Origin: Candidatus Limnocylindria bacterium
GTDB taxonomy: Bacteria > Chloroflexota > Limnocylindria > QHBO01
Direction of reading: 5' to 3'
Assembly: GCA_036556695.1 (NCBI GenBank)
Contig: DATBIY010000006.1
Coordinates: 22,231 to 86,230, forward strand
DNA length: 64,000 bases
A program made the position numbers and the translations under genes. This document shows, piece after piece, positions 20,217 through 49,280 of the stretch. The notes below the pieces were generated by a model that was not told where the DNA came from, did not search any database, and saw only the letters and a list, made by a program, of their open reading frames with translations. Position 1 is the first letter of the stretch; every line of letters begins with the position of its first letter.

Positions 20217-23200
20217 GTGCCCTCCCTCTTCCGCGACCGCGGTTTCGAGCACGAGGCGCTCATCAGCGTGGCCCAGGCGGCCGCCCTGCTGGGCGTGCAT
20301 CCGAACACGCTCCGTGCCTGGACCGACGCCGGCCGCCTCACCGCGTATCGCATCAACGCCCGCGGCGACCGCCGCTACCGGCGGATCGACGTCGAGCGGC
20401 TGCTGGCCGAGGGCGGCGACTTCCCGGATCCGGCGCTGGCCGCCGACAGCGCAGCCGCGCAGCGCGAGAACGAGGTCACCCTCTTTGCCCGGTTGGCACA
20501 GGGCACCGGCCCGTCGGCGACCCCGGCGGCGGTCTGCCGCTCGGCCATCGAGGCGCTGCGCACCTCGATGGGGATAGAACGCGCGGCCATCTACGTGACG
20601 CGCGACGCAGCCGATGGCGTGCTCGTGCTCGAGACGCACGCCGGGTATTCCGTTCCTCCGCCGCCGACGATCGAAGCCGTGAACGCAGTGGCCGCGGACC
20701 ACCCCGCCGCAGCGGACGCGGGGATCCGGCGCCGGCTGCCGCTGCAGGCCGCCGGTGAGCGGCTTGGCGAGCTGGTGCTGGAGGACGAGCCTGGCGGCGC
20801 GCTGGAAGGCGTCCGCGACCAGCTGCTGCGCCACGCGGCAGCCGCCATCGCCGCCGACCTGCTGAACGCGCGGGTCATGGCTCGCGCGCGCCGCGAGGTC
20901 AGCCGCGCACGTGCCCTGCGGCACGTCACCCAGGAGCTCACCGGGCAGCTCGACCTGGGCGCGGTGCTGGACGAGGTCGTGGACCGCACGCGCTCGCTGT
21001 TCGACGCCGACAAGGCCGGCCTGTGGCTGCTGGACGAGTCCGAGCAGCCGTTCAAGAGCGCCGCCTCCCGCTCGCTTGGTGAGGACTTCCAGGCGCGCGT
21101 CCGGCAGCTGACCCTCTCCAGCGAGGCGGTTGGCGTGCAGGCGGTCCGCGAGCGCCGCACCTTCGTGGTGCGCGAGGCAGACACCCGCCAGGGCGTGGGC
21201 GAAATGCAGGCGGTCTACGCCGCGGAGGGCATCAAGACGGCCTGCATCGTGCCGCTGGTGAGCAACGACCGCGCCGTCGGGGTGCTGGGGCTGTACCACC
21301 TCCGCGACCACGACTGGCCCGATGACGAGCTCGCACTCGCGCAATCCTTCGCCAACCAGGCGGCGGTGGCCATCAGCAACGCCCGCCTGTACCACTCGGT
21401 CGCCGACCAGGCGAACCGCATTCGGTCCATCCAGGACCTGTCGGCGCGGCTGAACCGTCTGACCGATGTGCAGGCCATTGCCGATGCCATCGTCGCCGAG
21501 GCGAGCTCGCTGGCCAACTACCACGACATCCGGGTGTACGTGGTGGACTGGGATCGGCGGATCTGCGAGCCGGTGGCCTTCACCGACCGGCTTCTCGGCG
21601 ACGGGGACTTCAAGGAGGCGCTGCGCGTTGACATCGGCGAAGGCTCGTTCACCGGCTGGGTGGCCGAGAACGGCGAGCCGATCCTGGCCAACGACGCGCT
21701 GCACGACGACCGTGGCCTGACGATCGAGGGCACCGACGACATCGACGAGTCGATGCTGGTGGTGCCGATGATGTACGAGGGCCGCGCGGTGGGTGTCATC
21801 GCGCTGTCGAAGCTGGGCATGAACCAGTTCAGCACCGACGACCTGCAGACCATGACCATCTTCGCCGGCTACGCGGCGCAGGCGATCGCCAACGCCCGCG
21901 CCTACGAGCGCCTGGAGCAGCAGTCGGCCGAGCTCGCGCGCCAGCTGCAGTCGCAGCGGCGGTTGCTGGAGATCAACGAGCGCCTGCTGTCGACGTTGGA
22001 CCGCGCCGACGTGATGGAGACCATCGCCGATGGCCTGCGCTCGGTGGTGCGCTACGACAACCTGTCGATCTATCGGGCCGACGAGGTGAAGCAGGTGCTG
22101 CAGCCGGTGCTCACGCGCGAGCGGCATGCCGAGGAGGTGAGCCGCTACGTCGTGCCCTTCGGCAGCGGCCTCATGGGCTGGGCGGTCGAGCACGGCGAGC
22201 CGATCCTGGCCAACGACGCGCTGAACGACCCGCGTGCCATGCAGATCCCCGGCACACCGGACGATCCGGAGGCACTGATCGTGGTGCCGCTCATCGCGGA
22301 CGGGGAGGTCATCGGCTGCATGAACCTGTCGCGGGTGGGCGGACCCGAGGTCCACTTCAGCGATGCCGACTTCGACCTGGTCAAGCTGTTCGCCGGCCAG
22401 GCGTCGATCGCGCTGCGCAACGCCGAGGCCCACCAGGCGATCGCCATGCGGGCGGAGACCGACGCGCTGACCGGACTGGGCAACCACGGCGCCTTCCAGC
22501 GCACCCTGGCGGATGTGCTGGGCCAGCCGGAGGGCGCCGCCCCATCACGACCGAAGGGACGCCAGGCGGGTCCGGTGGCGCTGCTGATGATGGACCTGGA
22601 CAACTTCAAGGCCTACAACGATCGCCTTGGCCACCCGGCCGGCGACGCCCTGCTGCACGCCATCGGCAATGCCATTTACGGATCCGCTCGAGCCGAGGAC
22701 CGCGTGTTCCGCTACGGCGGCGACGAGTTCGCGCTGATCCTGCCAGGAGCCGATGCGCGGGCCGCCGAGGCGGTCGGCGAGCGCGTTCGTGCGGCGGTCG
22801 CCCGGCTGACCAGCAAGGAGCCTATGCCGGTCACCATCAGCGTCGGCGTGGCCGCCTACCCCGGCGACGCCACAGACAAGAACGACCTCATCGCCGCGGC
22901 CGATACGGCGCTCTACCTTGGCAAGCAGGCGCCCGAGGACCGCGTGGTGCGTGCCGACCAGGTGCCCACCGAGATGCGCGCGTTGCGCAGCACGCTGGAC
23001 CAGCTGGCCCGCGCGGCGCTGCTGCATCCAGACGAGGGCCCGACCGTCGACTCCCTGGTCGAGCAGGCCGCGCGGCTCTCGCACGCCGGCGATGGACAGG
23101 AGAGCAGCGTGCGCGACGCCCTGCTCGCCGTTGCCCGCTCGCTCGACGCGCTCGATCCGGCGAGCATCGGCCACGGCGACCGCGTCGGCCGCCTGGCGCG

Positions 23201-23633
23201 CATGGTTGCCGAGAAGCTGGGGTGCGACGCCGGATCGGCCAGCGCCATCGAGCTTGCGGCTCGGCTGCACGGCCTGGAGGCCATCGGCGCGGAGGAGCTG
23301 CAGGCCGTCCCGTCGCTGCGCGAGGTGGGCGAGCTGGTCGGCTGGCACGGCCGCGAGTCGCACGGGAGTGGCGCGCACGGGCCCGACGCGGACGACCGGA
23401 TGCCACTGGCAGCGCAGATCGTCGCCGCGGCCAATGCGTACGACGTGCTGGCCTCCGGCATCAACGGCGAGCCGATGGACCGGCGCGCGGCCATCGACCG
23501 CCTGGCCGAGGGCGGACGCTTCGAAATCCAGGTGGTCCGGGCGCTGGCGACCGTGGTTGGCGTGAAGTCGCGCGCCTCCCGGCGACGGCGGCGCGGCGAC
23601 GCGGTCATGCCCGAGGAGCGCGGCGCCGCCTGA
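20217..23633 (+). CDS. Multidomain signalling protein: excisionase/MerR-type HTH, three GAF domains, GGDEF diguanylate cyclase and a degenerate HD-GYP-like domain
   Basis: N-terminal HTH (ISVAQAAALLGVHPNTLRAWTDAGRL), repeated GAF-like blocks, intact GGDEF with I-site (RAEDRVFRYGGDEF), and a C-terminal HD-GYP-like region in which HD becomes HG (HGDRVGRLA...LHGLEAIG...WHGRESHGSG). Confidence 0.75.
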   Translation: MPSLFRDRGFEHEALISVAQAAALLGVHPNTLRAWTDAGRLTAYRINARGDRRYRRIDVERLLAEGGDFPDPALAADSAAAQRENEVTLFARLAQGTGPSATPAAVCRSAIEALRTSMGIERAAIYVTRDAADGVLVLETHAGYSVPPPPTIEAVNAVAADHPAAADAGIRRRLPLQAAGERLGELVLEDEPGGALEGVRDQLLRHAAAAIAADLLNARVMARARREVSRARALRHVTQELTGQLDLGAVLDEVVDRTRSLFDADKAGLWLLDESEQPFKSAASRSLGEDFQARVRQLTLSSEAVGVQAVRERRTFVVREADTRQGVGEMQAVYAAEGIKTACIVPLVSNDRAVGVLGLYHLRDHDWPDDELALAQSFANQAAVAISNARLYHSVADQANRIRSIQDLSARLNRLTDVQAIADAIVAEASSLANYHDIRVYVVDWDRRICEPVAFTDRLLGDGDFKEALRVDIGEGSFTGWVAENGEPILANDALHDDRGLTIEGTDDIDESMLVVPMMYEGRAVGVIALSKLGMNQFSTDDLQTMTIFAGYAAQAIANARAYERLEQQSAELARQLQSQRRLLEINERLLSTLDRADVMETIADGLRSVVRYDNLSIYRADEVKQVLQPVLTRERHAEEVSRYVVPFGSGLMGWAVEHGEPILANDALNDPRAMQIPGTPDDPEALIVVPLIADGEVIGCMNLSRVGGPEVHFSDADFDLVKLFAGQASIALRNAEAHQAIAMRAETDALTGLGNHGAFQRTLADVLGQPEGAAPSRPKGRQAGPVALLMMDLDNFKAYNDRLGHPAGDALLHAIGNAIYGSARAEDRVFRYGGDEFALILPGADARAAEAVGERVRAAVARLTSKEPMPVTISVGVAAYPGDATDKNDLIAAADTALYLGKQAPEDRVVRADQVPTEMRALRSTLDQLARAALLHPDEGPTVDSLVEQAARLSHAGDGQESSVRDALLAVARSLDALDPASIGHGDRVGRLARMVAEKLGCDAGSASAIELAARLHGLEAIGAEELQAVPSLREVGELVGWHGRESHGSGAHGPDADDRMPLAAQIVAAANAYDVLASGINGEPMDRRAAIDRLAEGGRFEIQVVRALATVVGVKSRASRRRRRGDAVMPEERGAA

Positions 23634-25517: not shown

Positions 25518-25565
25518 ACGGCGGCGCTCCGGCGTGCCGCGGCGGGGCGGCGGGCGCATCGGTCT

Positions 25566-26600
25566 ATGATCCGGCTCGTGCTGGATGAGAGCTGGGAGCC
25601 GGCGGACGAGCGCGGTGCGCGCAAGCGCGACCGGCTGGCCCGGCTGCTGAGGGTGGCATCCATCCTCTACTCGCGGGGCTCGGGCGACAACGGCGTGGCG
25701 GTGACCGAGATCGCCGAGCTGACCGGCATGACCACCCGCACGGTGTACCGCGACATCAAGGCCCTCGAGGAAGAGCTGGGCATGCCGATCTTCGAGGCGG
25801 GGCGCGGCCGCCGCGGGATCGAGAAGAAGTACTTCCTGCCGCCGCTGCGCCTCTCCCTGCCCGAGGCGGTGGTGCTGTTCCTGGCGTCGCGGCTCATCGC
25901 GCGCTGGTCGGACGAATACGACCAGGCGGTCATCAGCGCCTTCACCAAGCTGGCGGACCTCCTGCCACAGCCCATCGCCCGCCACGTGGCGGCCACCATG
26001 CTGAGTGTCGGGCGGGCAGATCCCAACGAGCCGTTCACCCGCAACTTCGCGGTGGTCGCCCAGGGCTGGGCCGACGGGCGGGTCGTCGAGTTCGACTACG
26101 AGCCCGCATCTGGCGGAGCCGATGCGCGCCACGCGCGGGTGCGGCCGTACTTCCTGGAGCCCGATGCCGCCGGGCGCTCGGTCTACCTCATCGGCTTCGA
26201 TGAGACGGTCGATGCCATGCGCACCCTCAAGGTCGAGCGCATGCGCAACGCGATCCTGACCGCGGACCGCTACGAGATCCCCGAGGAGTTCGATCCGGAC
26301 GCCTGGCTGGCCCATTCGTGGGGCATCTGGTCGTCCGACACCACCGCGGTGGCGCAGGTCCGGCTGCGCTTCGACGCCTCGGTGGCGCCTCGCGTCCGGG
26401 AGTCGATCTGGCACCGCTCGCAGCAGATCACCGAGCTCCCGGATGGCGGCGTCGAGATGACGCTGACCGTGGCCGGCATCGTCGAGATCCGGCCCTGGAT
26501 CCTGGGATGGGGTGACGCGGTCGAGGTGCTGGAGCCGCCAGAGCTGCGCGAGGTGGTGGCCGGCGCGGTGCGACGAGCGGCAGCGCGCTACGAGACCTGA
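25566..26600 (+). CDS. HTH plus WYL-domain transcriptional regulator (PafBC/DriD-like)
   Basis: N-terminal DeoR-like HTH (RLARLLRVASILYS...VTEIAELTGMTTRTVYRDIKALEE...PIFEAGRGRRG) and C-terminal WYL/WCX-like region. Confidence 0.75.
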   Translation: MIRLVLDESWEPADERGARKRDRLARLLRVASILYSRGSGDNGVAVTEIAELTGMTTRTVYRDIKALEEELGMPIFEAGRGRRGIEKKYFLPPLRLSLPEAVVLFLASRLIARWSDEYDQAVISAFTKLADLLPQPIARHVAATMLSVGRADPNEPFTRNFAVVAQGWADGRVVEFDYEPASGGADARHARVRPYFLEPDAAGRSVYLIGFDETVDAMRTLKVERMRNAILTADRYEIPEEFDPDAWLAHSWGIWSSDTTAVAQVRLRFDASVAPRVRESIWHRSQQITELPDGGVEMTLTVAGIVEIRPWILGWGDAVEVLEPPELREVVAGAVRRAAARYET

Positions 26601-27235
26601 TGCCCGGCAGCCTCGAGATCGAGCTCAAGATGCGCGCCGATGACGAGGCCCCGCTGCGCCACCTGGCGGACGTTCCTCTGCTCGGCGGATGCCGCCTGGG
26701 CCCGGCGCGAGAGGTAGAGGAGACCGATCGCTACCTCGACACCGCTGACCGGCGGCTCTCGTCGCAGGGCTGGGCCTGCCGCCTGCGGAAGCGCAACGGC
26801 GTGACGCTCGTCTCGCTCAAGGGGCCACCGGAGCATGCGCCCGGCGAGGCCCTTCACCGCCGGCCCGAGCTCGAGGGTCCAGCCGATGGTGTGCCCGACC
26901 CTGCCGCGTGGCCGCCCTCGGCGGCGCGCAGCCGCCTGCTGGAGCTGACCGGCCATGAAGCGCTGCGCGAGCGGATCGTGCTGCGGCAGCGAAGAGTCGA
27001 GCGCGTGGTGGAGCCTGACCGGCGACTCGGAGTCCTGTCGCTGGACCGGGTCGAGGTGCTGCGCGACGGGACAGCGCGCGGCGATTTCGCGGTGGTCGAG
27101 CTGGAGCTGGCCGGCGGCGCAGACGAGCGTGAGCTGGCCCCGCTGGCCGAAGCCCTGTACGCCACGCCGGGCCTGCAGGCGGAGCCGCGGACGAAGCTGG
27201 AGCGTGCGCTGGAGCTGGCGCCGGACTGCGGATGA
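26600..27235 (+). CDS. CYTH-domain protein (triphosphate tunnel metalloenzyme, CyaB/thiamine-triphosphatase family)
   Basis: N-terminal ExExK signature (LEIELKMR) and about 200 aa of CYTH length. Start overlaps the WYL gene stop, and its own stop overlaps the next gene by 4 nt. Confidence 0.65.
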   Translation: MPGSLEIELKMRADDEAPLRHLADVPLLGGCRLGPAREVEETDRYLDTADRRLSSQGWACRLRKRNGVTLVSLKGPPEHAPGEALHRRPELEGPADGVPDPAAWPPSAARSRLLELTGHEALRERIVLRQRRVERVVEPDRRLGVLSLDRVEVLRDGTARGDFAVVELELAGGADERELAPLAEALYATPGLQAEPRTKLERALELAPDCG

Positions 27236-29442
27236 CGATGGCACGTTCCGTGGGAGTGGCGGCGGCGGTCGTGCTGACCGTGGTGGCCATGGGCTACGCC
27301 GCCTGGGACAGTGCGCTATGGGATCCGCGCTGGCAGCTGGGTCTCCACCTCTCGGCGCTGGCCATGGCCGGCGGCCTGGCCTGGCTGGCCCTCGCCGGCG
27401 GGGCGCTGCCGCGATCCCGCCTGGAGCTGCCGATCCTGCTCCTGCTGCTCGCATTTGCCTCCGCCGCGATGACGCCGTGGAACGCCGGCCTCTCGGCGCA
27501 GTCTCTCGCCGCAATCTGCGCCACGGTGCTGGCGCTGCCGGGGGCCGCAGTTGCCATCCGCCACCGCCCCAACCTGACAGCCCTGGCCATCCTCCTGCCG
27601 ATCCTCTACGTGTCCGCCGTCGCGCTGCTCGGGCTGCTCGCCAGGCGGCTGGACTGGGTGGCAGCCGGCGGGCCTGGCCTGCCACCGATTCGCCTGATTC
27701 GCGAGTCGACCATGCTGGGGTCGGTAGCGGTGCCGCCGTTCGTCGCGCTGTCGGCTGCCCCGCTGAGCCTGCTGATCTCCGATCGCCGGACGAGACGCGG
27801 CCTGCAGGCAGCGCTGCTGATCCTGGGCGTGCCGCTCACCGTCCTGTCCGGCTCGCGCTCGGCATGGATTGCCATCGCGGTGGCGGCCGCCGTGCTCCTC
27901 GTGCCGCCGATCATCCGCCGCGTTCGGCGCCGCGGCCTGGCGTGGCTCGGCCCGGATACGTGGACCCCGCGGCGCGTCGGAATCGCCGTCCTCGGCCTCG
28001 CCGTGCTGACGCTGTCGCTCACCCTCATCGCACCGCGGCTCACCGACCTGCGCTCGCTGCTGTACCGCGGCTTCCTGTGGCGCGACACGCTGGCCGCCTG
28101 GAGCAGCGACCCGCTGTTCGGCATCGGCCCCGGCAGCATGCCGTTCGCGCGGCAGGCGGCGGCCCCCTCGCTGAGCTTCCCGGTGCGGCAGCCGCACTCT
28201 CACGACGTGCCGCTGGGCATCCTGGGCGACGCCGGCCTGCTGGGCCTGGCTGCGGCGGCCGCGGTGGTGATCACCTTCGTCTGGCTGGCGGGGCCATGGC
28301 GGACGCGGACCCGCCCCGGCCGCGCGGCGTTCGCGGTGTTGTCCGGCATCGCGACCTCGATGCTGTTCGAGGACCTGACCTTCCTGCCCGGCTTCAACCT
28401 GCTGATGCTGACCTTGGCCGCCATGGCACTGACCGATGGCGGCGCGATCACGTGGCGGCCCCTGCACCCGCCCGGCTGGCAGGGTCGCGGCCTGGCCGCG
28501 GCCGGGGTGGTGGCCAGTGCTGCGCTGGTGGCCGTCATGGCGGCCGGCGACGCATCCGCCATTGCCTACCGGCAGGGCACGGACGCGGCGTCGGGTCGCG
28601 ACTGGCCGGCGGCGCTCGAGGCGTTCCAGGCATCGGTCCGGCTGAACCCGTGGCAGCCAACCGGCCCGAAGGCGGTGGCATTGGTGGCGGACCGTGCGGG
28701 GAAGCCGGAGTTGGCGCGCCAGTCAACCGAGCGCGCGGTGGAGCTTGGGCCGGGCGATGGCAGTGCCTGGACGAACCTGGCGGTGCTGTGCCGCGCCCAG
28801 GGCGACCGCGAGTGCGCACGACGGGCCGCCGACCGCGCCGTCGACACGGCCAGCCCTTCCGGCCAGGAGCTGGCCAACGCGGCGCTCACCTACGAGTGGC
28901 TCGGCGACCGGCAGGCCGCGGACCGCGCATATCGCTTCTCGCTGCTGACCAACCCGTACACCAGCCTCACGCTCCCGTGGCCGCGGCCGGTGAGCGTGGG
29001 CGACGGCACTGCGCCCGAGCTGGGCGTGGACGTGGCCGAGTTGAGCCTGCTGATCGCGCGCCGGGTGGCGAACGAGGACATCGATCCGGATGCGTATGCC
29101 ACGCCCGTAATCCGGGCACTGGCCTACGCCATGACCGGCGATCGGCCCGCGGCCGAGGACGAGGTGCAGCGGGCGCTGACCGCGATGCCCGAATCGCCAA
29201 CCGGCTGGGAGGTGGCCGCGCTGCTGGCGCGCCACTACGGCCAGGACGCCGAGCGGTTCCTGCGCATCGGCGACGCGGCCCGCGGGATCCAGCTGGCCAG
29301 CGGCACGCCGGAGCAGCCGGCGCTGGTCTACGACATCGCCACCTTCCGCGCCTACCCAGCCGATGGATTGGTAGCGGACGCCGTGCGGCTGGTCCCGAGC
29401 CAGCCATGGCCCTGGGTCCTGGAGCCGTACCTGGCGCGGTGA
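27232..29442 (+). CDS. O-antigen-ligase-like (Wzy_C) polytopic membrane protein with a C-terminal TPR-repeat domain
   Basis: About 12 predicted TM helices with a large loop, then about 300 aa of TPR-like repeats (AYRQGTDAASGRDWPAALEAFQASVRLNPWQ...). Confidence 0.55.
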   Translation: MTMARSVGVAAAVVLTVVAMGYAAWDSALWDPRWQLGLHLSALAMAGGLAWLALAGGALPRSRLELPILLLLLAFASAAMTPWNAGLSAQSLAAICATVLALPGAAVAIRHRPNLTALAILLPILYVSAVALLGLLARRLDWVAAGGPGLPPIRLIRESTMLGSVAVPPFVALSAAPLSLLISDRRTRRGLQAALLILGVPLTVLSGSRSAWIAIAVAAAVLLVPPIIRRVRRRGLAWLGPDTWTPRRVGIAVLGLAVLTLSLTLIAPRLTDLRSLLYRGFLWRDTLAAWSSDPLFGIGPGSMPFARQAAAPSLSFPVRQPHSHDVPLGILGDAGLLGLAAAAAVVITFVWLAGPWRTRTRPGRAAFAVLSGIATSMLFEDLTFLPGFNLLMLTLAAMALTDGGAITWRPLHPPGWQGRGLAAAGVVASAALVAVMAAGDASAIAYRQGTDAASGRDWPAALEAFQASVRLNPWQPTGPKAVALVADRAGKPELARQSTERAVELGPGDGSAWTNLAVLCRAQGDRECARRAADRAVDTASPSGQELANAALTYEWLGDRQAADRAYRFSLLTNPYTSLTLPWPRPVSVGDGTAPELGVDVAELSLLIARRVANEDIDPDAYATPVIRALAYAMTGDRPAAEDEVQRALTAMPESPTGWEVAALLARHYGQDAERFLRIGDAARGIQLASGTPEQPALVYDIATFRAYPADGLVADAVRLVPSQPWPWVLEPYLAR

Positions 29443-29466
29443 GCGCGCGCCGCTGAGCGCCGAAGC

Positions 29467-30153
29467 TCAGTCGGACAGCGGCAGGCGAAGGATCAGGGCC
29501 AGCGTCGGGCGAGCACGCGGCTCGGCCGGAATGATCGGCGCCCGCAGCCACGCCGCGCCGGCCGGCCCTTCGCGATATCGGGCAGACAGCTGCCGCGCCG
29601 ACAGCCCGTCGATGCCCAGGCTGGCCAGCGCCTCCGCGACCAGTGTCCCGTCGCCGGTGTAACCGCGGCCGGCGACCACTCGATCGCCGTCGGCCAGCAG
29701 CGCTCCCAGCCAGCGGCGCCGCACGCGGAACGAGCGACGGGTCACCGGCTCGCCGCCGGCCCACAGCAGGTCGCTGGCCACGTACGCCGGACGGCCGGCA
29801 TCTGCCTGGCCGTCCAGGCGGGCACGCAGCAGCGCGGGATCCGGCCGGCCGTCGTCGTCCAGCACCAGCAGCGTGCCGTCCAGCACCACCCCATCCTCGC
29901 CCAGCTGTCCCAGCAGCTCACTCAGCTCGGGAAAGGTGGCGGTGGCATCGGCCAGGCCGTCCGCCTGCAGGCGGAGCCGCCCTCGCTCGGCCAGGGCGAA
30001 GGCGCGGATGCCCGGCCACCACGGCTCGAAAAAGTAGCCGGCGTCGTCGAACGGGGCGTCGACCTGGGTGGCCTGCATCGGCACGATGCGCGACGGCAAG
30101 CGCGCCGGGCGGTCCTCCGGCGGAACGGGCAGCGGCAGCTGCTCCGGGGGCAC
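29467..30153 (-). CDS. LigD-ligase-domain homologue with degenerate catalytic motifs (predicted inactive pseudo-ligase), encoded immediately downstream of Ku
   Basis: Collinear with the LigD nucleotidyltransferase domain (PMQATQVD...FFEPWWPGIRAFA...DGTLLVLD...GIDGLSAR...AWLRAP). Motif I KxDG is WxPG here, motif IV K is R and motif V K is R. Confidence 0.65.
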   Translation of the reverse strand: MPPEQLPLPVPPEDRPARLPSRIVPMQATQVDAPFDDAGYFFEPWWPGIRAFALAERGRLRLQADGLADATATFPELSELLGQLGEDGVVLDGTLLVLDDDGRPDPALLRARLDGQADAGRPAYVASDLLWAGGEPVTRRSFRVRRRWLGALLADGDRVVAGRGYTGDGTLVAEALASLGIDGLSARQLSARYREGPAGAAWLRAPIIPAEPRARPTLALILRLPLSD

Positions 30154-30159
30154 GCTGCC

Positions 30160-31068
30160 TCAGGCGGTCTTGCGGCGTCGCGCCGCCGGCGCCTCCTCTT
30201 CCGAGTCCTTGGCCTTGCGGCGGCCGGCGGTCTTCTTGGCGGTTGACTTGGCCGGCTTCTCCTCCGCCTCCCCGCCGCTGCGGCGCGACTCGCGGGCCGC
30301 AGCCACGCTGGCCTCCAGGGCGGCCATCAGGTCGCCGATCTTGGTGGGCTCGGTCTTGCGCGCCGGCTCCGGCTTCTGTCCGGCGATCTTGGCCTCGATG
30401 ACCTGCATCAGGGCCTCGCGGTACTCGTCGTGCTCCTCGGATGGATCGAACTCGCCGCTCATCGAGGAGACCAACTGCTCCGCCATCTTGCGCTCGCTGG
30501 CCTTGATCTCGATCTCGTCCTCGGGCAGATTCAGCTCCTCGAGCGAGCGGATCTCGTCGGGCCAGTGGAGCGTGGTGAGAAGCATCGTCTTGCTGAACGG
30601 GTTCAGTGCGGCCAGCTGCTCCCGGTCCTTGAGGACGATCTTGCAGATGGCGGTCTTGCCGGTCTCGGCCAGCACTGACTTGAGCAGGTAGAAGGCCTTG
30701 CGGCCGACCTCATCGGGCTCCAGGTAGTAGGCCTGCTTGACGAAGCGGGCGCCCTTCTCCTCGGCCTGATCCTCGTCGACGAAGGCCTCGATTTCGATGG
30801 ACCGCACGGTCTTGAGCGGCACCGACTCGAGGTCCTCCTCGGTAATGACCACGTACTTGCCCTTCGACCACTCGTAGCCGCGCACAGTCTCCGAGCGCGG
30901 GATGACCTCATCGTCCTCGGGGCAATAGATCTTCATCTGGATCCGGCTCAGATCCTTCTTGTGCAGCAGGTTGAAGCCGATGCCACCCGATTCGGTGGCC
31001 AGGTACAGCTTCACCGGGATCGTCACCAGCCCGAACTGGATGGCCCCCCGCCACATGGATCGCGCCAT
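30160..31068 (-). CDS. ku: Ku protein (non-homologous end joining)
   Basis: MARSMWRGAIQFGLVTIPVKLY... is the canonical bacterial Ku N-terminus, followed by a Lys/Ala-rich C-terminal tail. Confidence 0.9.
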   Translation of the reverse strand: MARSMWRGAIQFGLVTIPVKLYLATESGGIGFNLLHKKDLSRIQMKIYCPEDDEVIPRSETVRGYEWSKGKYVVITEEDLESVPLKTVRSIEIEAFVDEDQAEEKGARFVKQAYYLEPDEVGRKAFYLLKSVLAETGKTAICKIVLKDREQLAALNPFSKTMLLTTLHWPDEIRSLEELNLPEDEIEIKASERKMAEQLVSSMSGEFDPSEEHDEYREALMQVIEAKIAGQKPEPARKTEPTKIGDLMAALEASVAAARESRRSGGEAEEKPAKSTAKKTAGRRKAKDSEEEAPAARRRKTA

Positions 31069-31204
31069 TCAAACTCCTCCGCCCGGGCGACCGCTCCGCG
31101 CCGGGGCGCCATGCTACACCTGCCTCGCAAAAGGGCCTGCCAAGCGGCTCGGCTAGGACCATCCCGTCATTGTTCGCACTGCCTTCCGTACCCAGACTGC
31201 AGGC

Positions 31205-33551: not shown

Positions 33552-35279
33552 TCAGCTGCTCTCCGGCCCCTCGCCGGTGGCCGCGATGCGCTCCGTCTCT
33601 CCGCCGCTTCCGCGCGCCAGCAGGATGCGACCGGTGGCCTGCTCTCTGAACAGCGCCTCCACCGTGCCCAGCGTGTCGATGTCGGCCGGCGTCTTGTCGT
33701 CGCGGATGCGCACGATGCGCGGGAAGCGCATGGCGAAGCCCGACTTGTGGCGGTTCGAGCGCAAGATCCGGTCGAAGGCGATCTCGACCACCACCTCGGG
33801 GTGCACCGTGCGGTAGCGGCCGAAGTCGCGCAGCGTGATCGACGTGAAGCGCTCGGTCATGGTCGCGATCTCGGCATCGGTCAGGCCGGTGTAGGCCTTG
33901 CCGATGGTCAGCAGCGGCGCATCGGCCTCCTCCGAGGCGCGGACGGAGAAGGTGTAGTCCGACAGGACGTTGCGCCGCTTGCCGTGGCCCCATTCCACGC
34001 CCACCACCACGCAGTCCAGGGTGGCCAGCGCCTTCTTCAGCTTCAGCCAACCAAGGCCGCGGCGGCCGGGCTGGTAGACCGAGTCCGGGTCCTTGACCAT
34101 CAGGCCCTCGTTGTGTCGCTCGCGCGCGTCGGCGAAGTGGCGCTCCACCTCATCCGCGCTGCGGGCCGTCGCCAGGTTCGAGAGCAGGAAGCGCTCCCCG
34201 CTGCGGCCGGGCAGGTCCAGCCCCTCCAGCGCGGCGCGGCGCTGGCGCAGCGGCGTCTCCAGCAGGTCGTTGCCGTCGAGGTGCAGCAGGTCGAAGGCGA
34301 CCAGCACCACCGGCACCTGTTCCAGCAGCTCCGGCCCCGGATTCACGCGGCCCAGGCGGGTCTGCAGGCTGGCGAAGTCCATGACCGATCCCGCCCGATA
34401 CGGCACCAGCTCGCCATCGATCACCAGCCGATGGTCCAGCGTGGCAGCGGCCGATGCCACCTCCGGGAAGGAGATGGTGATGTCGTTCAGGTCGCGGCTG
34501 AACAGCCGTGCCCGGCCGTTGGCCAGATGCAGCTGTGCGCGGATGCCGTCGTACTTGTCCTCGATCCAGGCCTCGTCGCCCACCCGCCGCATCACCTCGT
34601 CCGCGTCGGCGACCGGCGTGGCCAGCATGAAGCGGATCGGCCGTCCCAGGTGCAGGGCGGCCGTGGCCAGCGCGTCATTCCGCGCCAGGACCGCCGCCTC
34701 GCCGGGCTCGCCCACCAGCATGAGGGCACGGCGCACGTCGTCGACGGGCCGCTCGAAGGCGGCAGCGATTGCCTCCTCCAGCAGCCCCTCGCGCAGGCCG
34801 ATGCGCAGCTCGCGGGCGGCGATTCGGCCGATGTAGCGCGCCTCGCCGGGCGTGGCCCGCGCGTAGAGGCGAGCCATCTCGGTCACCCGCGCCTCAGCCG
34901 ACTGCGCCTCGCTCATGCCGCGGAACGCGCGGTCGACGTCGCTGACGCTCAGTGGCGGCGGCGTGGGCGAGCGGCTCGTCAGCAGGTCGGCGGCGGCATC
35001 CCCAAGGTCCGAGTGGCGCAGGTAGGCCGAGTTCAGCGCCTCCGCAGCGGCTCCTGAGGCGGCGGCCAGGGCCTGGCTCTGCTGCACCCAGCCCAGCCCC
35101 AGGCGGTCCTGCGCCCCGGGCAGCGGCCGTCCCGCGAAGAAGGTTGCCGCGGCCGGTAGGACGGCAGCGGGAAGCGCTCGCAGGTAGGCCGCCAGCAAGT
35201 CGCGCTTCTTCAGCTTGGAGGTGGTGGCCGCCACGTCATCGGCAACGCGGGCGAACTCGGCGAACGTGGCGGCAGCCAT
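33552..35279 (-). CDS. lig: ATP-dependent DNA ligase (LigB/LigC type), catalytically intact
   Basis: Motif I EDKYDGIRAQLH with the catalytic Lys, motif III (LVIDGELV), motif IV (EGLMVK) and motif V (WLKLKK). Start is probably the internal Met (MAAATFAEF...), giving a 35-nt divergent intergenic region with the next gene. Confidence 0.85.
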   Translation of the reverse strand: MAAATFAEFARVADDVAATTSKLKKRDLLAAYLRALPAAVLPAAATFFAGRPLPGAQDRLGLGWVQQSQALAAASGAAAEALNSAYLRHSDLGDAAADLLTSRSPTPPPLSVSDVDRAFRGMSEAQSAEARVTEMARLYARATPGEARYIGRIAARELRIGLREGLLEEAIAAAFERPVDDVRRALMLVGEPGEAAVLARNDALATAALHLGRPIRFMLATPVADADEVMRRVGDEAWIEDKYDGIRAQLHLANGRARLFSRDLNDITISFPEVASAAATLDHRLVIDGELVPYRAGSVMDFASLQTRLGRVNPGPELLEQVPVVLVAFDLLHLDGNDLLETPLRQRRAALEGLDLPGRSGERFLLSNLATARSADEVERHFADARERHNEGLMVKDPDSVYQPGRRGLGWLKLKKALATLDCVVVGVEWGHGKRRNVLSDYTFSVRASEEADAPLLTIGKAYTGLTDAEIATMTERFTSITLRDFGRYRTVHPEVVVEIAFDRILRSNRHKSGFAMRFPRIVRIRDDKTPADIDTLGTVEALFREQATGRILLARGSGGETERIAATGEGPESS

Positions 35280-35314
35280 GGGATCGAGTCTAGCGGCGTG
35301 TACGATCCGGGCCG

Positions 35315-37648
35315 ATGCAGACCGTGGGCGTCCTCCACGCGGATCCACCGGCCCTGACGCCCGAGCGTGCCGCCGAGCTGGCGCTCGAGCTGTACGGCGT
35401 CAGCGCCAGCACGCGGATGCTGGTCAGCGAGCGGGACCAGAACTTCCGGCTGGATGCAGACGACGGCAGCCGCTGGGTTCTCAAGGTCTCGAACGCGGCC
35501 GAGGACCCGGCCGTGGTCGAGATGGAGGTGGCTGCCGTGGAGCACGTGGCCGCCATGGACCCCACGCTCCCGGTGCCACGTGCGCGCCCCGCCCGCTCCG
35601 GGGAGCTGGTGGCGGTGGCGCGGGAGGGCGGCGCCACGCACCGCGTGCGGCTGCTGCCCTTCTTCGAGGGTCGTTCCGCAGCGCCCGGGGAGCTGGACGC
35701 CATGGCCATTCGGGCGATTGGCCATGCGACGGCCCGCGTTAGCCACGCGCTGCGCGGCTTCTTCCACCCGGCCGCCGGCCGGGTGATGCCGTGGGACCAG
35801 AAGCAGATCCTGCCCGAGCTGGCGCAGCACGCCGACCGCATCACCGACCCACGACGCAGGGCGCTGCTCGACCGCTTCCTGCGGCGCTTCGAGGACCGCG
35901 TGGCGCCCGCGCTGCCCCAGCTGCGGTCGCAGGTCATCCACAACGACGTGACCCTGGACAACCTGCTGCTCGACGACGCGGACCGGATCAGCGGGATCAT
36001 CGACTTCGGCGACATGGTGCACACCGCCACCGTGCTCGACGTGCCCGCCACGCTGCAGTCGCTGGTGCGGCACCGTGACGACCTGTTCGAGGTCTCCGGC
36101 TGGTTCCTCCCCGGGTTCACCTCGATCGTGCCGCTCGAAGCCGATGCGGCGGAGCTGCTGGCCGACCTGATGGCCGGCCGCATGGTGCAGACCATCCTCA
36201 TCTCCGCCTGGCGGACGGAGCAGTTCCCGGACAACGCCTACATCACCGGCTGGCAGGAGCCGGCCTGGACGCTGCTCGAGGGCATGGAGCGCACCGGCAT
36301 GGATGCCGCCGCGCGGCGGCTGGCCCAGATGGCCATGGCCCCCGCCCTGCGTGCCAGCGCGGCTCCTCCACCTGACGCCGAGCTGGCTGCGCGGCGAGCT
36401 GGCGTGCTGGGGCCAGCACTCGAGCGGCTGAGCTACGCGCGGCCGCTGCACCTGGTCCGCGGCCAGGGTGCCTGGATGTTCGACGCCGAGGGGCGCGCCT
36501 ACCTGGATGCCTACAACAACGTGCCGGTGGTCGGCCACGCCCACCGACGGGTGGCCGATGCCATCGCCCGCCAGGCGGCGACCCTCAACACCAACACCCG
36601 TTACCTGCACGCCGCCATCGTCGAGCTGGCGCAGCGGATCGTCGCCTCGATGCCCGACGGCTTGGACACGGTGATGTTCGTGAACTCGGGCAGCGAGGCG
36701 AACGACCTGGCCTGGCGGCTGGCGACCACCGCGAGCGGCGGCGACGCGGGCCTGGTCGCGGACTGGGCCTACCACGGCGTGACCGCGGCCATCGCCGATT
36801 TCTCCCCGTCCGAGTGGCCGCGCGGCGCGCGGCCGGCGGGCGTCGAGACCTTTCCTGCGCCAGACACCTTCCGCGGGCCCTACGCCCAGGCCGCGGACCC
36901 GGCCGCGGTGGCGCGCGACGAGATGGCGGCCGCCCTGGCGCGGCTGGCTGAGCGTGGCCGGCGGCCGGCGGCGCTGTTCATTGATGCGTTCTGGACCTCG
37001 TCCGGCATCTTCGCACCGGCGGCCGCAACCGTGGCCGAGCTGATCCGCGAGGCGCGACGGGCCGGCGCGCTGTACGTGGCCGACGAGGTGCAGTCCGGCC
37101 ACGGCCGCAGCGGCGACGGGCTGTGGACCTTTCCGGCCTGGGGTGTGACGCCGGACGTGGTCACCATGGGCAAGCCGATGGGCAACGGGCATCCGGTGGC
37201 GGCGGTGGTCACCCGCACCGACATCGCCGAACGTCTGGCGGCGACGACGACCTTCTTCAGCACGTTCGGCGGCAACCCGGTGGCCTGCGTGGCGGCGCTT
37301 TCAGTGCTTGACGTGGTCGAGGACGAGGACCTCGTCGCCCACGCCGCAAGCGTGGGGGCGACGCTGCGCGAGGGCCTGGCAGCGCTGGCCGGGCGCCATC
37401 CGCAGATCGGCGACGTGCGCGGCCGTGGGCTGATCGTGGGCGTCGAGCTGGTGGAGCGGGACGGTGCGCCCGCCGGCGAGCTGGCGCGAGCGGTACGCGA
37501 CCGGATGCGCGAGGAAGGGGTGCTCATCGGCACCACCCGGCGCGAGGGCAACGTGCTGAAGATCCGGCCGCCGCTGGTGATCAGCCCGGACGACGCCGAC
37601 CTCATCGTGACGACCCTGGATCGCGTGCTGGCCGCGCTCGCCGGCTGA
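35315..37648 (+). CDS. Bifunctional-type fusion: N-terminal APH-like phosphotransferase (hydroxylysine-kinase-like) and C-terminal class-III PLP aminotransferase fold (phospho-lyase/aminotransferase-like)
   Basis: Kinase Brenner motif HNDVTLDNLLL and DFGDM. Aminotransferase class III motifs (SGSEANDLAWRLA, DEVQSGHGRSG, PLP Lys in TMGKPMGNGHP). Confidence 0.75.
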   Translation: MQTVGVLHADPPALTPERAAELALELYGVSASTRMLVSERDQNFRLDADDGSRWVLKVSNAAEDPAVVEMEVAAVEHVAAMDPTLPVPRARPARSGELVAVAREGGATHRVRLLPFFEGRSAAPGELDAMAIRAIGHATARVSHALRGFFHPAAGRVMPWDQKQILPELAQHADRITDPRRRALLDRFLRRFEDRVAPALPQLRSQVIHNDVTLDNLLLDDADRISGIIDFGDMVHTATVLDVPATLQSLVRHRDDLFEVSGWFLPGFTSIVPLEADAAELLADLMAGRMVQTILISAWRTEQFPDNAYITGWQEPAWTLLEGMERTGMDAAARRLAQMAMAPALRASAAPPPDAELAARRAGVLGPALERLSYARPLHLVRGQGAWMFDAEGRAYLDAYNNVPVVGHAHRRVADAIARQAATLNTNTRYLHAAIVELAQRIVASMPDGLDTVMFVNSGSEANDLAWRLATTASGGDAGLVADWAYHGVTAAIADFSPSEWPRGARPAGVETFPAPDTFRGPYAQAADPAAVARDEMAAALARLAERGRRPAALFIDAFWTSSGIFAPAAATVAELIREARRAGALYVADEVQSGHGRSGDGLWTFPAWGVTPDVVTMGKPMGNGHPVAAVVTRTDIAERLAATTTFFSTFGGNPVACVAALSVLDVVEDEDLVAHAASVGATLREGLAALAGRHPQIGDVRGRGLIVGVELVERDGAPAGELARAVRDRMREEGVLIGTTRREGNVLKIRPPLVISPDDADLIVTTLDRVLAALAG

Positions 37649-48449: not shown

Positions 48450-49140
48450 AACCCACGCCCCTCACCGTCTTGATGTAACGCGGTTGGGCGGGATCGGGCT
48501 CGATCTTGTCGCGGATGTGGCTGATGTGCACGTTGATCGTCCGCTCGTCGGCCTCCAGTGCCTCGTAGTCGCGCACCAGCTCCAGCAGCTGGGTGCGGGT
48601 GTAGACGCGTCCCGGTCGGCTGGCAAGGTGGCGCAGGAGGTCGAACTCGGTGGTGGTCAGACTGATGCGCTCGCCATCACGCGTCGCCCGGCGACGTTCG
48701 AGGTCGATGACCAGGTCGCCGCGACGCAGCGTCCGGCCGGTCTGGGTATCGGCCAGTTCGCCGTAGGCGCGCCGCAGCAGCGCCTTCACACGACTGACCA
48801 GCTCGCGCACGCTGAACGGCTTGACCAGGTAGTCGTCGGCGCCGATCTCGAGGCCGACGACTTTGTCCACCTCGTCGGCGCGCGCCGTGAGAAACAGGAT
48901 GGGAGCGCGGGTCTCGCGACGCAGCTGGCGGCAGACCTCGAAGCCGTCCATGCCAGGCAGGCGCACGTCCAGCAGCACCAGGTCCGGGGCGATGTCGGCC
49001 AGGCGGCTGATGGCCTCCTCCCCGGTGGGCACCACTGCCACGTCGTAGCTCTCGCGCTCGAGCGCCACCTGGACTCCGCGGGCGACCGCAGGCTCGTCCT
49101 CGACGATCATGATCGTGCCGGCCATTCGGTCGCTGATCAT
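48430..49140 (-). CDS. OmpR-family response regulator
   Basis: Receiver domain (VEDEP...LLDVRLPGMDG) and winged-helix output (YIKTVRGVGY). Confidence 0.85.
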   Translation of the reverse strand: MISDRMAGTIMIVEDEPAVARGVQVALERESYDVAVVPTGEEAISRLADIAPDLVLLDVRLPGMDGFEVCRQLRRETRAPILFLTARADEVDKVVGLEIGADDYLVKPFSVRELVSRVKALLRRAYGELADTQTGRTLRRGDLVIDLERRRATRDGERISLTTTEFDLLRHLASRPGRVYTRTQLLELVRDYEALEADERTINVHISHIRDKIEPDPAQPRYIKTVRGVGYAFSED

Positions 49141-49280
49141 AGCCCGATGCGGCCGCCCGGCCCGGGCGGCCTCCTTGCCCGGTCACCGACGCGCTGCTAG
49201 GATTCGGCCTCGCACCCGCGTGACCACCCTTCGTCCGGCGTGCCCGGACGACGAGAATTTCGAGGATTTGACCGCCCGCC

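Follow-up and report, generated by a model that had tools for sequence, protein, structure and literature searches.

A coupled WYL-CYTH gene pair with a dispensable Wzy_C/TPR gene in Candidatus Limnocylindria

Regulators of the WYL family increasingly stand out as the chief non-SOS sensors by which bacteria perceive DNA damage and phage attack, with their targets defining the response. Among them, DriD of Caulobacter and SiwR are homodimeric activators of winged helix-turn-helix (wHTH)-WYL-WCX architecture that sense single-stranded DNA (ssDNA). In Mycobacterium smegmatis, SiwR controls adjacent enzyme genes after genotoxic stress (PMC10693628). The present analysis concerns a group of three genes in a 64,000-nucleotide (nt) stretch of DNA, referred to below as the window, from Candidatus Limnocylindria (Chloroflexota; genome GC content about 70%). 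The first gene encodes a WYL factor, the second a CYTH protein, and the third a membrane protein with Wzy_C and TPR domains. The bacterial roles of CYTH enzymes are mostly unknown. In this locus, WYL and CYTH form a very stable, translationally coupled pair, with Wzy_C/TPR as an ancestral, dispensable third member; the operon is vertically inherited and specific to the class Limnocylindria, and is not a widespread new system.

The WYL-CYTH pair and its third gene

The unit comprises three open reading frames (ORFs), listed here with the two domains of the third.

25566-26600, plus strand: ORF1, wHTH-WYL-WCX transcription factor, 344 amino acids (aa) from ATG 25566 (Pfam)
26600-27235, plus strand: ORF2, stand-alone CYTH protein/triphosphate tunnel metalloenzyme (TTM), 211 aa, no CHAD domain (Pfam)
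27232-29442, plus strand: ORF3, Wzy_C/TPR protein, 736 aa (Pfam)
27232-28551, plus strand: Wzy_C polytopic membrane domain of ORF3, about 13 helices (Pfam, hydropathy, AlphaFold2 model)
28552-29442, plus strand: C-terminal TPR domain of ORF3, about 300 aa (Pfam, Foldseek, PDB profile search)

In all three, the GC content at third codon positions (0.85-0.92) contrasts with that at second positions (0.48-0.57), which marks them as genuine coding frames. The WYL stop codon (TGA, 26598-26600) gives its A to the CYTH start codon (ATG at 26600), creating a TGATG junction with a 1-nt overlap; the CYTH/Wzy junction is an ATGA with a 4-nt overlap (27232-27235). Coordinates and junctions are as an initial annotation of this DNA had given them, and its domain identities (an HTH-WYL regulator, a CYTH protein with an EIELK signature, Wzy_C plus TPR) are correct by Pfam.

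About 110 related loci were sampled in total. A CYTH-seeded scan with one genome per species yielded 80 loci, all of the same type and a few of them under other taxon labels; WYL-seeded metagenome contigs yielded 34 in-class loci at 75-89% identity, 28 of which had enough downstream sequence. For synteny mapping, thirteen window proteins were placed on 83 loci. All 74 evaluable CYTH-seeded loci have WYL directly upstream of CYTH, and CYTH follows WYL in 26 of the 28 metagenome loci. At ORF level, 72 of 79 loci show a 1-14-nt overlap of the WYL stop with the CYTH start, and an insertion between the two genes is never seen across the loci mapped. The flanking junctions vary: upstream there is a CaCA gene, a rhodanese-like gene or no gene, and downstream Wzy_C/TPR is present or absent. 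It stands between CYTH and a ligase-like gene in 55 of 75 loci, while in 19 of the 75 it is missing and CYTH adjoins the ligase-like gene. At the CYTH/Wzy junction, the ATGA overlap of the window recurs in 45 of 58 loci, so that Wzy_C/TPR, where present, is a true operon member and not a chance insertion. Since the overlaps at both junctions have been kept across species, the unit is non-random, and the operon proposed in the initial annotation is borne out.

The composition of the unit is modular. In a neighbour-joining tree of concatenated WYL, Ku, ligase-like and CYTH proteins (64 taxa), Wzy_C/TPR is present at the root and has been lost independently at least six times. CYTH is absent from two metagenome contigs from different samples (L108, 942-1190; L112, 1194-1607), in which the conserved N-terminus of the Wzy_C/TPR protein comes directly after the WYL stop. 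The Wzy losses and the CYTH-less contigs together rule out an obligate three-part system; given this modularity, the three genes would be co-regulated cargo and not one machine.

A further variant is found in L052 (820-4225), where CYTH is translationally coupled to a gene for a PAP2_3 lipid phosphatase (388 aa) and the Wzy_C/TPR gene (793 aa) is inverted. Both PAP2_3 and Wzy_C/TPR would act on polyprenyl-pyrophosphate-linked envelope chemistry.

The surrounding neighbourhood of about 15 kb, from GAF-GGDEF to a large ligase, is collinear throughout the class. Its 5' part runs MerR-HTH/GAF/GGDEF, lipoprotein-like ORF, variable slot, WYL, CYTH, Wzy_C/TPR (present or absent); its 3' part runs ligase-like (-), Ku (-), response regulator (present or absent), OsmC (-), hypothetical, DUF6812 (-), large ligase (-). 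The ligase-like/Ku pair follows the WYL-CYTH(-Wzy) unit tail-to-tail in 75 of 75 loci with evaluable downstream sequence, so the adjacency to Ku/ligase repair genes, pointed out in the initial annotation, is found in every evaluable locus. Relative to the window proteins, median identity reaches 76% (WYL) and 75% (Ku) and falls to 63% in the ligase-like protein, 53% in CYTH and 49% in Wzy.

Beyond the class, the pair is not seen. The database holds more than 1,000 CYTH relatives; the best 120 are 55-99% identical, and the named relatives among these 120 are Candidatus Limnocylindria or Chloroflexota. A search of plasmids for CYTH homologues gave no match. An exhaustive representative search for the WYL protein found stand-alone relatives at 40-47% identity. 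A set of 46 outgroup metagenome WYL loci (the 42-47% clade) had no CYTH, Wzy, Ku or ligase-like matches within 4 kb, and four further outgroup WYL loci, examined individually, had no CYTH or Wzy_C nearby. The WYL-CYTH link is therefore specific to the Limnocylindria orthologue group; the pair's absence outside the class is read from the WYL side alone, the best 120 CYTH matches being all in-class. Synteny of the trio in related genomes, as envisaged in the initial annotation, thus extends throughout the class and, as seen from the WYL side, no further, and even within the class Wzy (19 of 75 loci) or CYTH (the two contigs) may be missing.

Five outgroup loci inspected gene by gene illustrate what stands beside the WYL gene elsewhere.

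L084: HhH-GPD glycosylase, Ogt, response regulator
L085: AddAB-like nuclease-helicase pair
L086: HD protein, translationally coupled
L087: toxin-antitoxin genes, Cas3
L127: coupled cupin; UDG-family glycosylase and RmuC nearby

At about 35% identity, the HTH-WYL-WCX module is found fused to Cas3 (HD plus helicase), to Cas3-HD alone or to a plain HD domain (proteins P0189, P0197, P0221, P0250 and P0168). In the wider WYL clade, the regulator leads operons whose enzyme cargo is interchangeable and often repair-related or active on nucleic acids. In one relative, P0170, an IS1595-type zinc ribbon precedes the HTH-WYL-WCX module.

Properties of the three proteins

Pfam recognises in ORF1, in order, HTH_11 (3.2e-7), WYL (1.2e-10) and WCX (2.4e-21). 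Its closest solved structure is DriD (E 1e-11), with PafBC and PafC as weak matches. DriD contacts ssDNA through Y168, R176, R178, Y192, R204 and R207 (PMC9186387). In a HMMER alignment, Y168, R176, Y192, R204 and R207 align with Y178, R188, Y207, R219 and K222 of ORF1, and the counterpart of R178 is R191, one residue off; of these positions, Y178, Y207 and K222 show no variation when outgroup homologues are aligned. In PADLOC, ORF1 reaches 244 bits with the model for the N-terminal module of WYL-Cas3 and is the only protein of the trio with PADLOC matches (CRISPR-associated WYL, Cas3c N-terminus). Sequence thus places it among predicted homodimer-type wHTH-WYL-WCX factors of the ssDNA-sensing kind (DriD, SiwR, CapW, PafBC). 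It had first been described as PafBC/DriD-like; the likeness to DriD stands by sequence, while that to PafBC is weak and does not extend to architecture and locus. An orthologue of PafBC was rejected: ORF1 is a single HTH-WYL-WCX half of 344 aa, and its neighbours are CaCA, CYTH, Wzy_C and Ku, with no Pup-proteasome genes.

ORF2 matches Pfam CYTH at 1.5e-12, and EIELK, at residues 6-10, is its ExExK motif. Fourteen candidate TTM motif residues are invariant in 32 orthologues (E6, E8, K10, R61, R63, K74, E90, E92, R132, E134, D149, E167, E169 and K199). The AlphaFold2 model is beta-rich, with a predicted local distance difference test score (pLDDT) of 94.6. Its best Foldseek match is the TTM domain of E. 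coli YgiF (5a60; E 4.6e-12, TM 0.70), and YgiF likewise comes first in a PDB profile search; phmmer with the single CYTH sequence against solved structures returned noise only. The top structural matches are the tripolyphosphatases YgiF, Sulfolobus SaTTM and Arabidopsis TTM3; E values for TTM structures lie between 1e-9 and 1e-12. Thiamine triphosphatases and class IV adenylate cyclases match less well, the cyclases reaching E 7e-7 versus 5e-12 for the triphosphatases. Judged from the model, ORF2 is probably an active, stand-alone TTM of the triphosphatase type; a role as class IV adenylate cyclase (CyaB) is possible. A YgiF-type inorganic triphosphatase, that is TTM plus CHAD, was ruled out, as ORF2 ends at residue 211 without a CHAD domain.

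Pfam, motif residues and structural matches therefore agree with the stand-alone triphosphate-tunnel enzyme with EIELK of the initial annotation. The accompanying idea that CYTH makes or destroys the WYL ligand found no support, the WYL domain keeping most of the DriD ssDNA-contact residues; there is very little chance that CYTH handles this ligand.

In ORF3, Wzy_C covers residues 195-341 (2.7e-13; 50.4 bits against a cut-off of 31.7), and the C-terminal part matches TPR_2, TPR_14 and TPR_16. Hydropathy and the AlphaFold2 model (pLDDT 88.5; predicted template modelling score 0.87) agree on about 13 membrane helices, the last of which continues straight into the TPR domain of about 300 aa. Loop 268-333 of the Wzy_C domain carries the invariant residues R269, R279, R307, H322 and H324. 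Foldseek and PDB profile searches returned TPR superhelices and the OGT TPR domain; for the membrane domain, they gave TPR proteins only and no solved WaaL-type match. By helix count and the positive-inside rule, the TPR domain would lie on the outer face together with the catalytic loop.

Two cysteines, C520 and C528 (window 28789-28815), sit on adjacent TPR helices eight residues apart and are invariant in both alignments. The pair suggests a disulfide and an extracytoplasmic TPR domain, consistent with the outer-face placement.

These properties fit the O-antigen-ligase-like polytopic protein with a long TPR domain that had been described: Wzy_C scores above its cut-off, and both the helices and the repeats are there. 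ORF3 is a Wzy_C family member and not a standard WaaL. The latter was rejected on three counts, namely the lack of a lipopolysaccharide (LPS)/glycan-synthesis context, the lack of a match to the NCBIfam WaaL models, and the extra TPR domain. The neighbours scanned include no glycosyltransferase, flippase or LPS gene, so that the locus does not resolve into the LPS/O-antigen locus with a standard WaaL that the initial annotation had named as the outcome speaking against its view. A lipid A-core acceptor would be unlikely in a Chloroflexota host.

Regulatory sequence and neighbouring genes

The elements and genes around the unit are as follows.

20217-23633, plus strand: protein with MerR/HTH_17 head, three GAF domains, GGDEF and HD_5 tail, 1138 aa
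24435-25517, plus strand: CaCA calcium/proton exchanger in the variable slot
25557-25571, plus strand: promoter-like element CATCGGTCTATGATC, with -10-like TATGAT at 25565-25570 (upstream alignment; putative promoter)
29444-29487: imperfect inverted repeat of 12 nt where the operon and the ligase-like gene converge, no T-run (putative terminator)
29467-30153, minus strand: ligase-like gene, nucleotidyltransferase domain only, 228 aa, ending 24 nt after ORF3 (Pfam, NCBIfam)
30160-31068, minus strand: Ku (Pfam, NCBIfam)
31111-31130 and 31156-31171, minus strand: Ku upstream elements TTGC-N6-GGTGTAGCAT and AATGRCGNRATGGTCC, conserved across the class
33552-35348, minus strand: full-length ATP-dependent ligase, about 4 kb further on (Pfam, NCBIfam)

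Many related loci carry a conserved CATCGG(T/G)CTAT(G/C)ATC before the WYL gene, with a conserved GTG 7 nt downstream. The annotated ATG at 25566 falls inside the -10-like TATGAT, and the true WYL start is likely GTG 25578. Its distance of 7 nt from the TATGAT points to a leaderless transcript that begins near 25578. If up to two mismatches are allowed, the 15-mer has five matches in the window against 0.32 expected, and it may be a lineage-typical extended -10 element for short-leader or leaderless genes.

A second exact copy, CATCGGGCTATGATC, lies at 49135-49149 on the minus strand and is the only other exact occurrence; 10 nt further on is the ATG of an OmpR-type response regulator, the first gene of an operon with a kinase and an HtrA-like protease. 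Its presence before this unrelated two-component operon indicates a type of promoter and not a WYL-specific operator.

In the Ku promoter, TTGC-N6-GGTGTAGCAT places -35-like and -10-like hexamers just 8 nt apart. This spacing resembles that of the -26-element promoters used by PafBC and SiwR. The upstream Ku element AATGRCGNRATGGTCC occurs once per locus in 23 loci and nowhere else in those loci. A sigma-70 consensus scan found no promoter. Terminator-like matches numbered two only, both on the plus strand inside the minus-strand ligase-like and Ku genes, and Rfam gave no RNA family for 23-36 kb of the window.

The ligase-like gene encodes a nucleotidyltransferase domain alone, without an OB fold, and at the KxDG adenylated-lysine site all 64 orthologues aligned have E[P/A]WWPGxR. 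To judge by these residues, the gene seems to encode a LigD-type domain that is conserved as a partner of Ku but catalytically dead. On the other side of the unit, the whole class retains the GAF-GGDEF gene, two to three genes upstream of WYL and in the same orientation. Between the lipoprotein-like ORF and WYL there is a gap that varies among species from 9 nt to 4.9 kb (equivalent slot in L004-L083); it holds CaCA here, a rhodanese-like gene (C-terminal GSWSDWSSD) in some loci and nothing in others. This slot is a hotspot of gene gain and loss beside an otherwise rigid block. Further downstream, at 35315-37648 on the plus strand, a 777-aa fusion of an APH-type phosphotransferase and a class III aminotransferase has a start-to-start overlap with the large ligase gene.

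Readings of the locus and comparison with known systems

The combination of WYL, CYTH and Wzy_C was not found described in PADLOC or the literature, and nothing relevant came up in the literature on WYL together with CYTH or on TTM in connection with DNA damage. The initial annotation was thus right, as far as the PADLOC models and the literature searched go, that this is not a described system. It is an undescribed cargo combination for a WYL regulator, absent from the nearest WYL relatives sampled.

The reading that we favour, with about as much doubt as confidence, is that of a lineage-specific operon led by a WYL factor of the ssDNA-sensor type, with a TTM phosphohydrolase as fixed cargo and a surface glycan transferase as optional cargo, probably self-regulated and damage-responsive. 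The WYL factor would head a short operon and control its own promoter, much as its closest relatives lead variable cargo. CYTH would hydrolyse inorganic triphosphate, short polyphosphate or a nucleoside triphosphate in the cytoplasm, and Wzy_C/TPR would transfer or polymerise an undecaprenyl-pyrophosphate-linked glycan onto a surface acceptor held by its TPR domain. The three genes would be co-translated where present; the pair would work without Wzy_C, and rare lineages would couple WYL directly to Wzy_C. DNA damage is suggested as the inducing signal by the adjacency of Ku together with the type of WYL factor. We infer a functional link among WYL, CYTH and Wzy_C/TPR on this basis.

This picture is complicated by several points that weigh against it. 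The syntenic block also includes unrelated genes (GAF-GGDEF, lipoprotein, OsmC, response regulator); with all of its roughly 15 kb syntenic, conservation is largely inherited and is no argument per se for a functional link, and the WYL-CYTH-Wzy adjacency could be simply inherited. Overlaps are frequent in the window: of its 39 co-directional junctions, 15 overlap, 8 in the -1 or -4 manner. Alone, they are weak evidence for a functional link. No WYL-specific operator was identified, the promoter-like 15-mer being shared with the two-component operon, and no element common to the WYL and Ku promoters was found; the Ku elements do not recur near WYL. WYL is not always the first gene: in some clades its start codon overlaps the end of the lipoprotein-like or rhodanese-like gene before it, and the transcript there is probably longer. 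The CYTH substrate is not readable from sequence, the TPR topology is derived from a count of helices, and the class is an uncultured one.

Some of these points lead to the best-surviving alternative, namely that the genes are neighbours only: compacted in a frozen syntenic block and maybe co-transcribed, with the targets of the WYL factor elsewhere. The collinearity of the whole block from GAF-GGDEF to the large ligase, the commonness of overlaps, the clean deletion of Wzy and, rarely, of CYTH, and the unrelated neighbours of outgroup WYL genes would all be expected from it. We nevertheless consider it unlikely. The WYL-CYTH overlap has been kept while CYTH diverged to about 50% identity and the flanking junctions changed genes; related WYL factors such as SiwR regulate adjacent genes (PMC10693628), and relatives within the WYL clade are repeatedly coupled or fused to a downstream enzyme.

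Less likely again is that WYL serves chiefly as a damage regulator of the adjacent Ku and ligase-like genes, with CYTH and Wzy as passengers on its transcript. The constant tail-to-tail arrangement (75 of 75 evaluable loci) fits this proposal, as do the ssDNA-sensor-type WYL domain, a conservation of WYL equal to that of Ku (76% and 75% median identity), the repair genes near WYL relatives and the unusual, conserved architecture of the Ku promoter. The two transcription units are convergent, however, with 1.6-3.9 kb between the WYL gene and the Ku promoter; no motif was found upstream of both WYL and Ku, and nothing ties the Ku-promoter elements to the WYL factor.

In a third proposal, WYL and CYTH are a signalling pair: a phosphate-rich molecule handled by CYTH tunes the WYL factor alongside ssDNA and couples a break response at the Ku locus to glycan remodelling. 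This molecule would be a triphosphate, a short polyphosphate or a nucleotide, made or destroyed by the tunnel enzyme. The near-invariant translational coupling of WYL and CYTH and the recurring phosphohydrolase partners of the WYL clade (HD, Cas3-HD, CYTH) are compatible with such a pair, which we regard as improbable.

A circuit based on cyclic di-GMP (c-di-GMP), in which the GAF-GGDEF protein makes the messenger, WYL senses it and Wzy_C/TPR makes a surface polysaccharide, is more doubtful still. A MerR-HTH/GAFx3/GGDEF/HD_5 protein is indeed conserved on the WYL strand, two or three genes before it, and Wzy_C proteins take part in assembling surface glycans. One WYL factor, MbpR, is reported to bind c-di-GMP (PMC11880434). 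The c-di-GMP residues are described as conserved in Firmicutes and diverged in DriD and PafBC (PMC11880434), DriD being the closest solved relative of ORF1; moreover, Wzy is dispensable while WYL-CYTH persists, and CYTH has no place in the scheme. An anti-phage cassette, in which a WYL repressor releases CYTH (for nucleotide depletion or signalling) and Wzy_C/TPR (for receptor masking through an altered glycan) on infection, is scarcely credible: WYL factors of the ORF1 type do control BREX, CBASS and CRISPR loci, and ORF1 has its 244 bits against the WYL-Cas3 model and relatives fused to Cas3, but CYTH and Wzy match no PADLOC model, plasmids carry no CYTH homologue, and the locus occurs singly, is inherited vertically and has a fixed place among conserved housekeeping genes across the class instead of in a variable island.

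In each case, throughout an uncultured class that is abundant in soil and fresh water, one WYL clade has a triphosphate tunnel enzyme for its constant partner, beside end-joining genes. If the link of the favoured operon reading is functional, CYTH enzymes gain a physiological context in the DNA-damage response, and changes in envelope glycans are tied to genome stress. If it is merely inherited adjacency, the locus is an ordinary lineage-specific gene order, and shows that a locus found in more than 100 genomes can be a frozen syntenic block.

Each protein has well-described counterparts. YgiF, SaTTM and TTM3 resemble ORF2 in their closed beta-tunnel fold, ExExK motif and charged tunnel residues; sequence identity to them is about 20-24%, and YgiF carries a CHAD domain that ORF2 does not. 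Proteins of the WaaL/Wzy/PglL type are, like ORF3, polytopic, with a Wzy_C domain and a large outer loop with conserved Arg and His residues, whereas ORF3 has an extra C-terminal helix and the 300-aa TPR domain and lies outside a glycan-synthesis locus.

For the regulator, several systems can be compared. In the defence-associated CapW/BrxR systems and WYL-Cas3 fusions, the regulator heads the operon that it controls, and ORF1 strongly matches the WYL-Cas3 N-terminal module; the operon here has no defence genes by PADLOC, and its locus is fixed chromosomal core and not an island. PafBC of Actinobacteria is likewise a WYL-family damage regulator, and ORF1 weakly matches the PafBC and PafC structures. 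It is a heterodimer or a fused tandem of HTH-WYL-WCX halves in the Pup-proteasome locus, in contrast to the single chain of ORF1, which is encoded elsewhere. DriD and SiwR are like ORF1 in three-domain architecture, size and most ssDNA-contact residues, although the identity to DriD is low and confined to the WYL-WCX part. Where their cargo consists of DinB-like proteins or a division inhibitor, that of the Limnocylindria factor is a CYTH enzyme and a putative glycan transferase.

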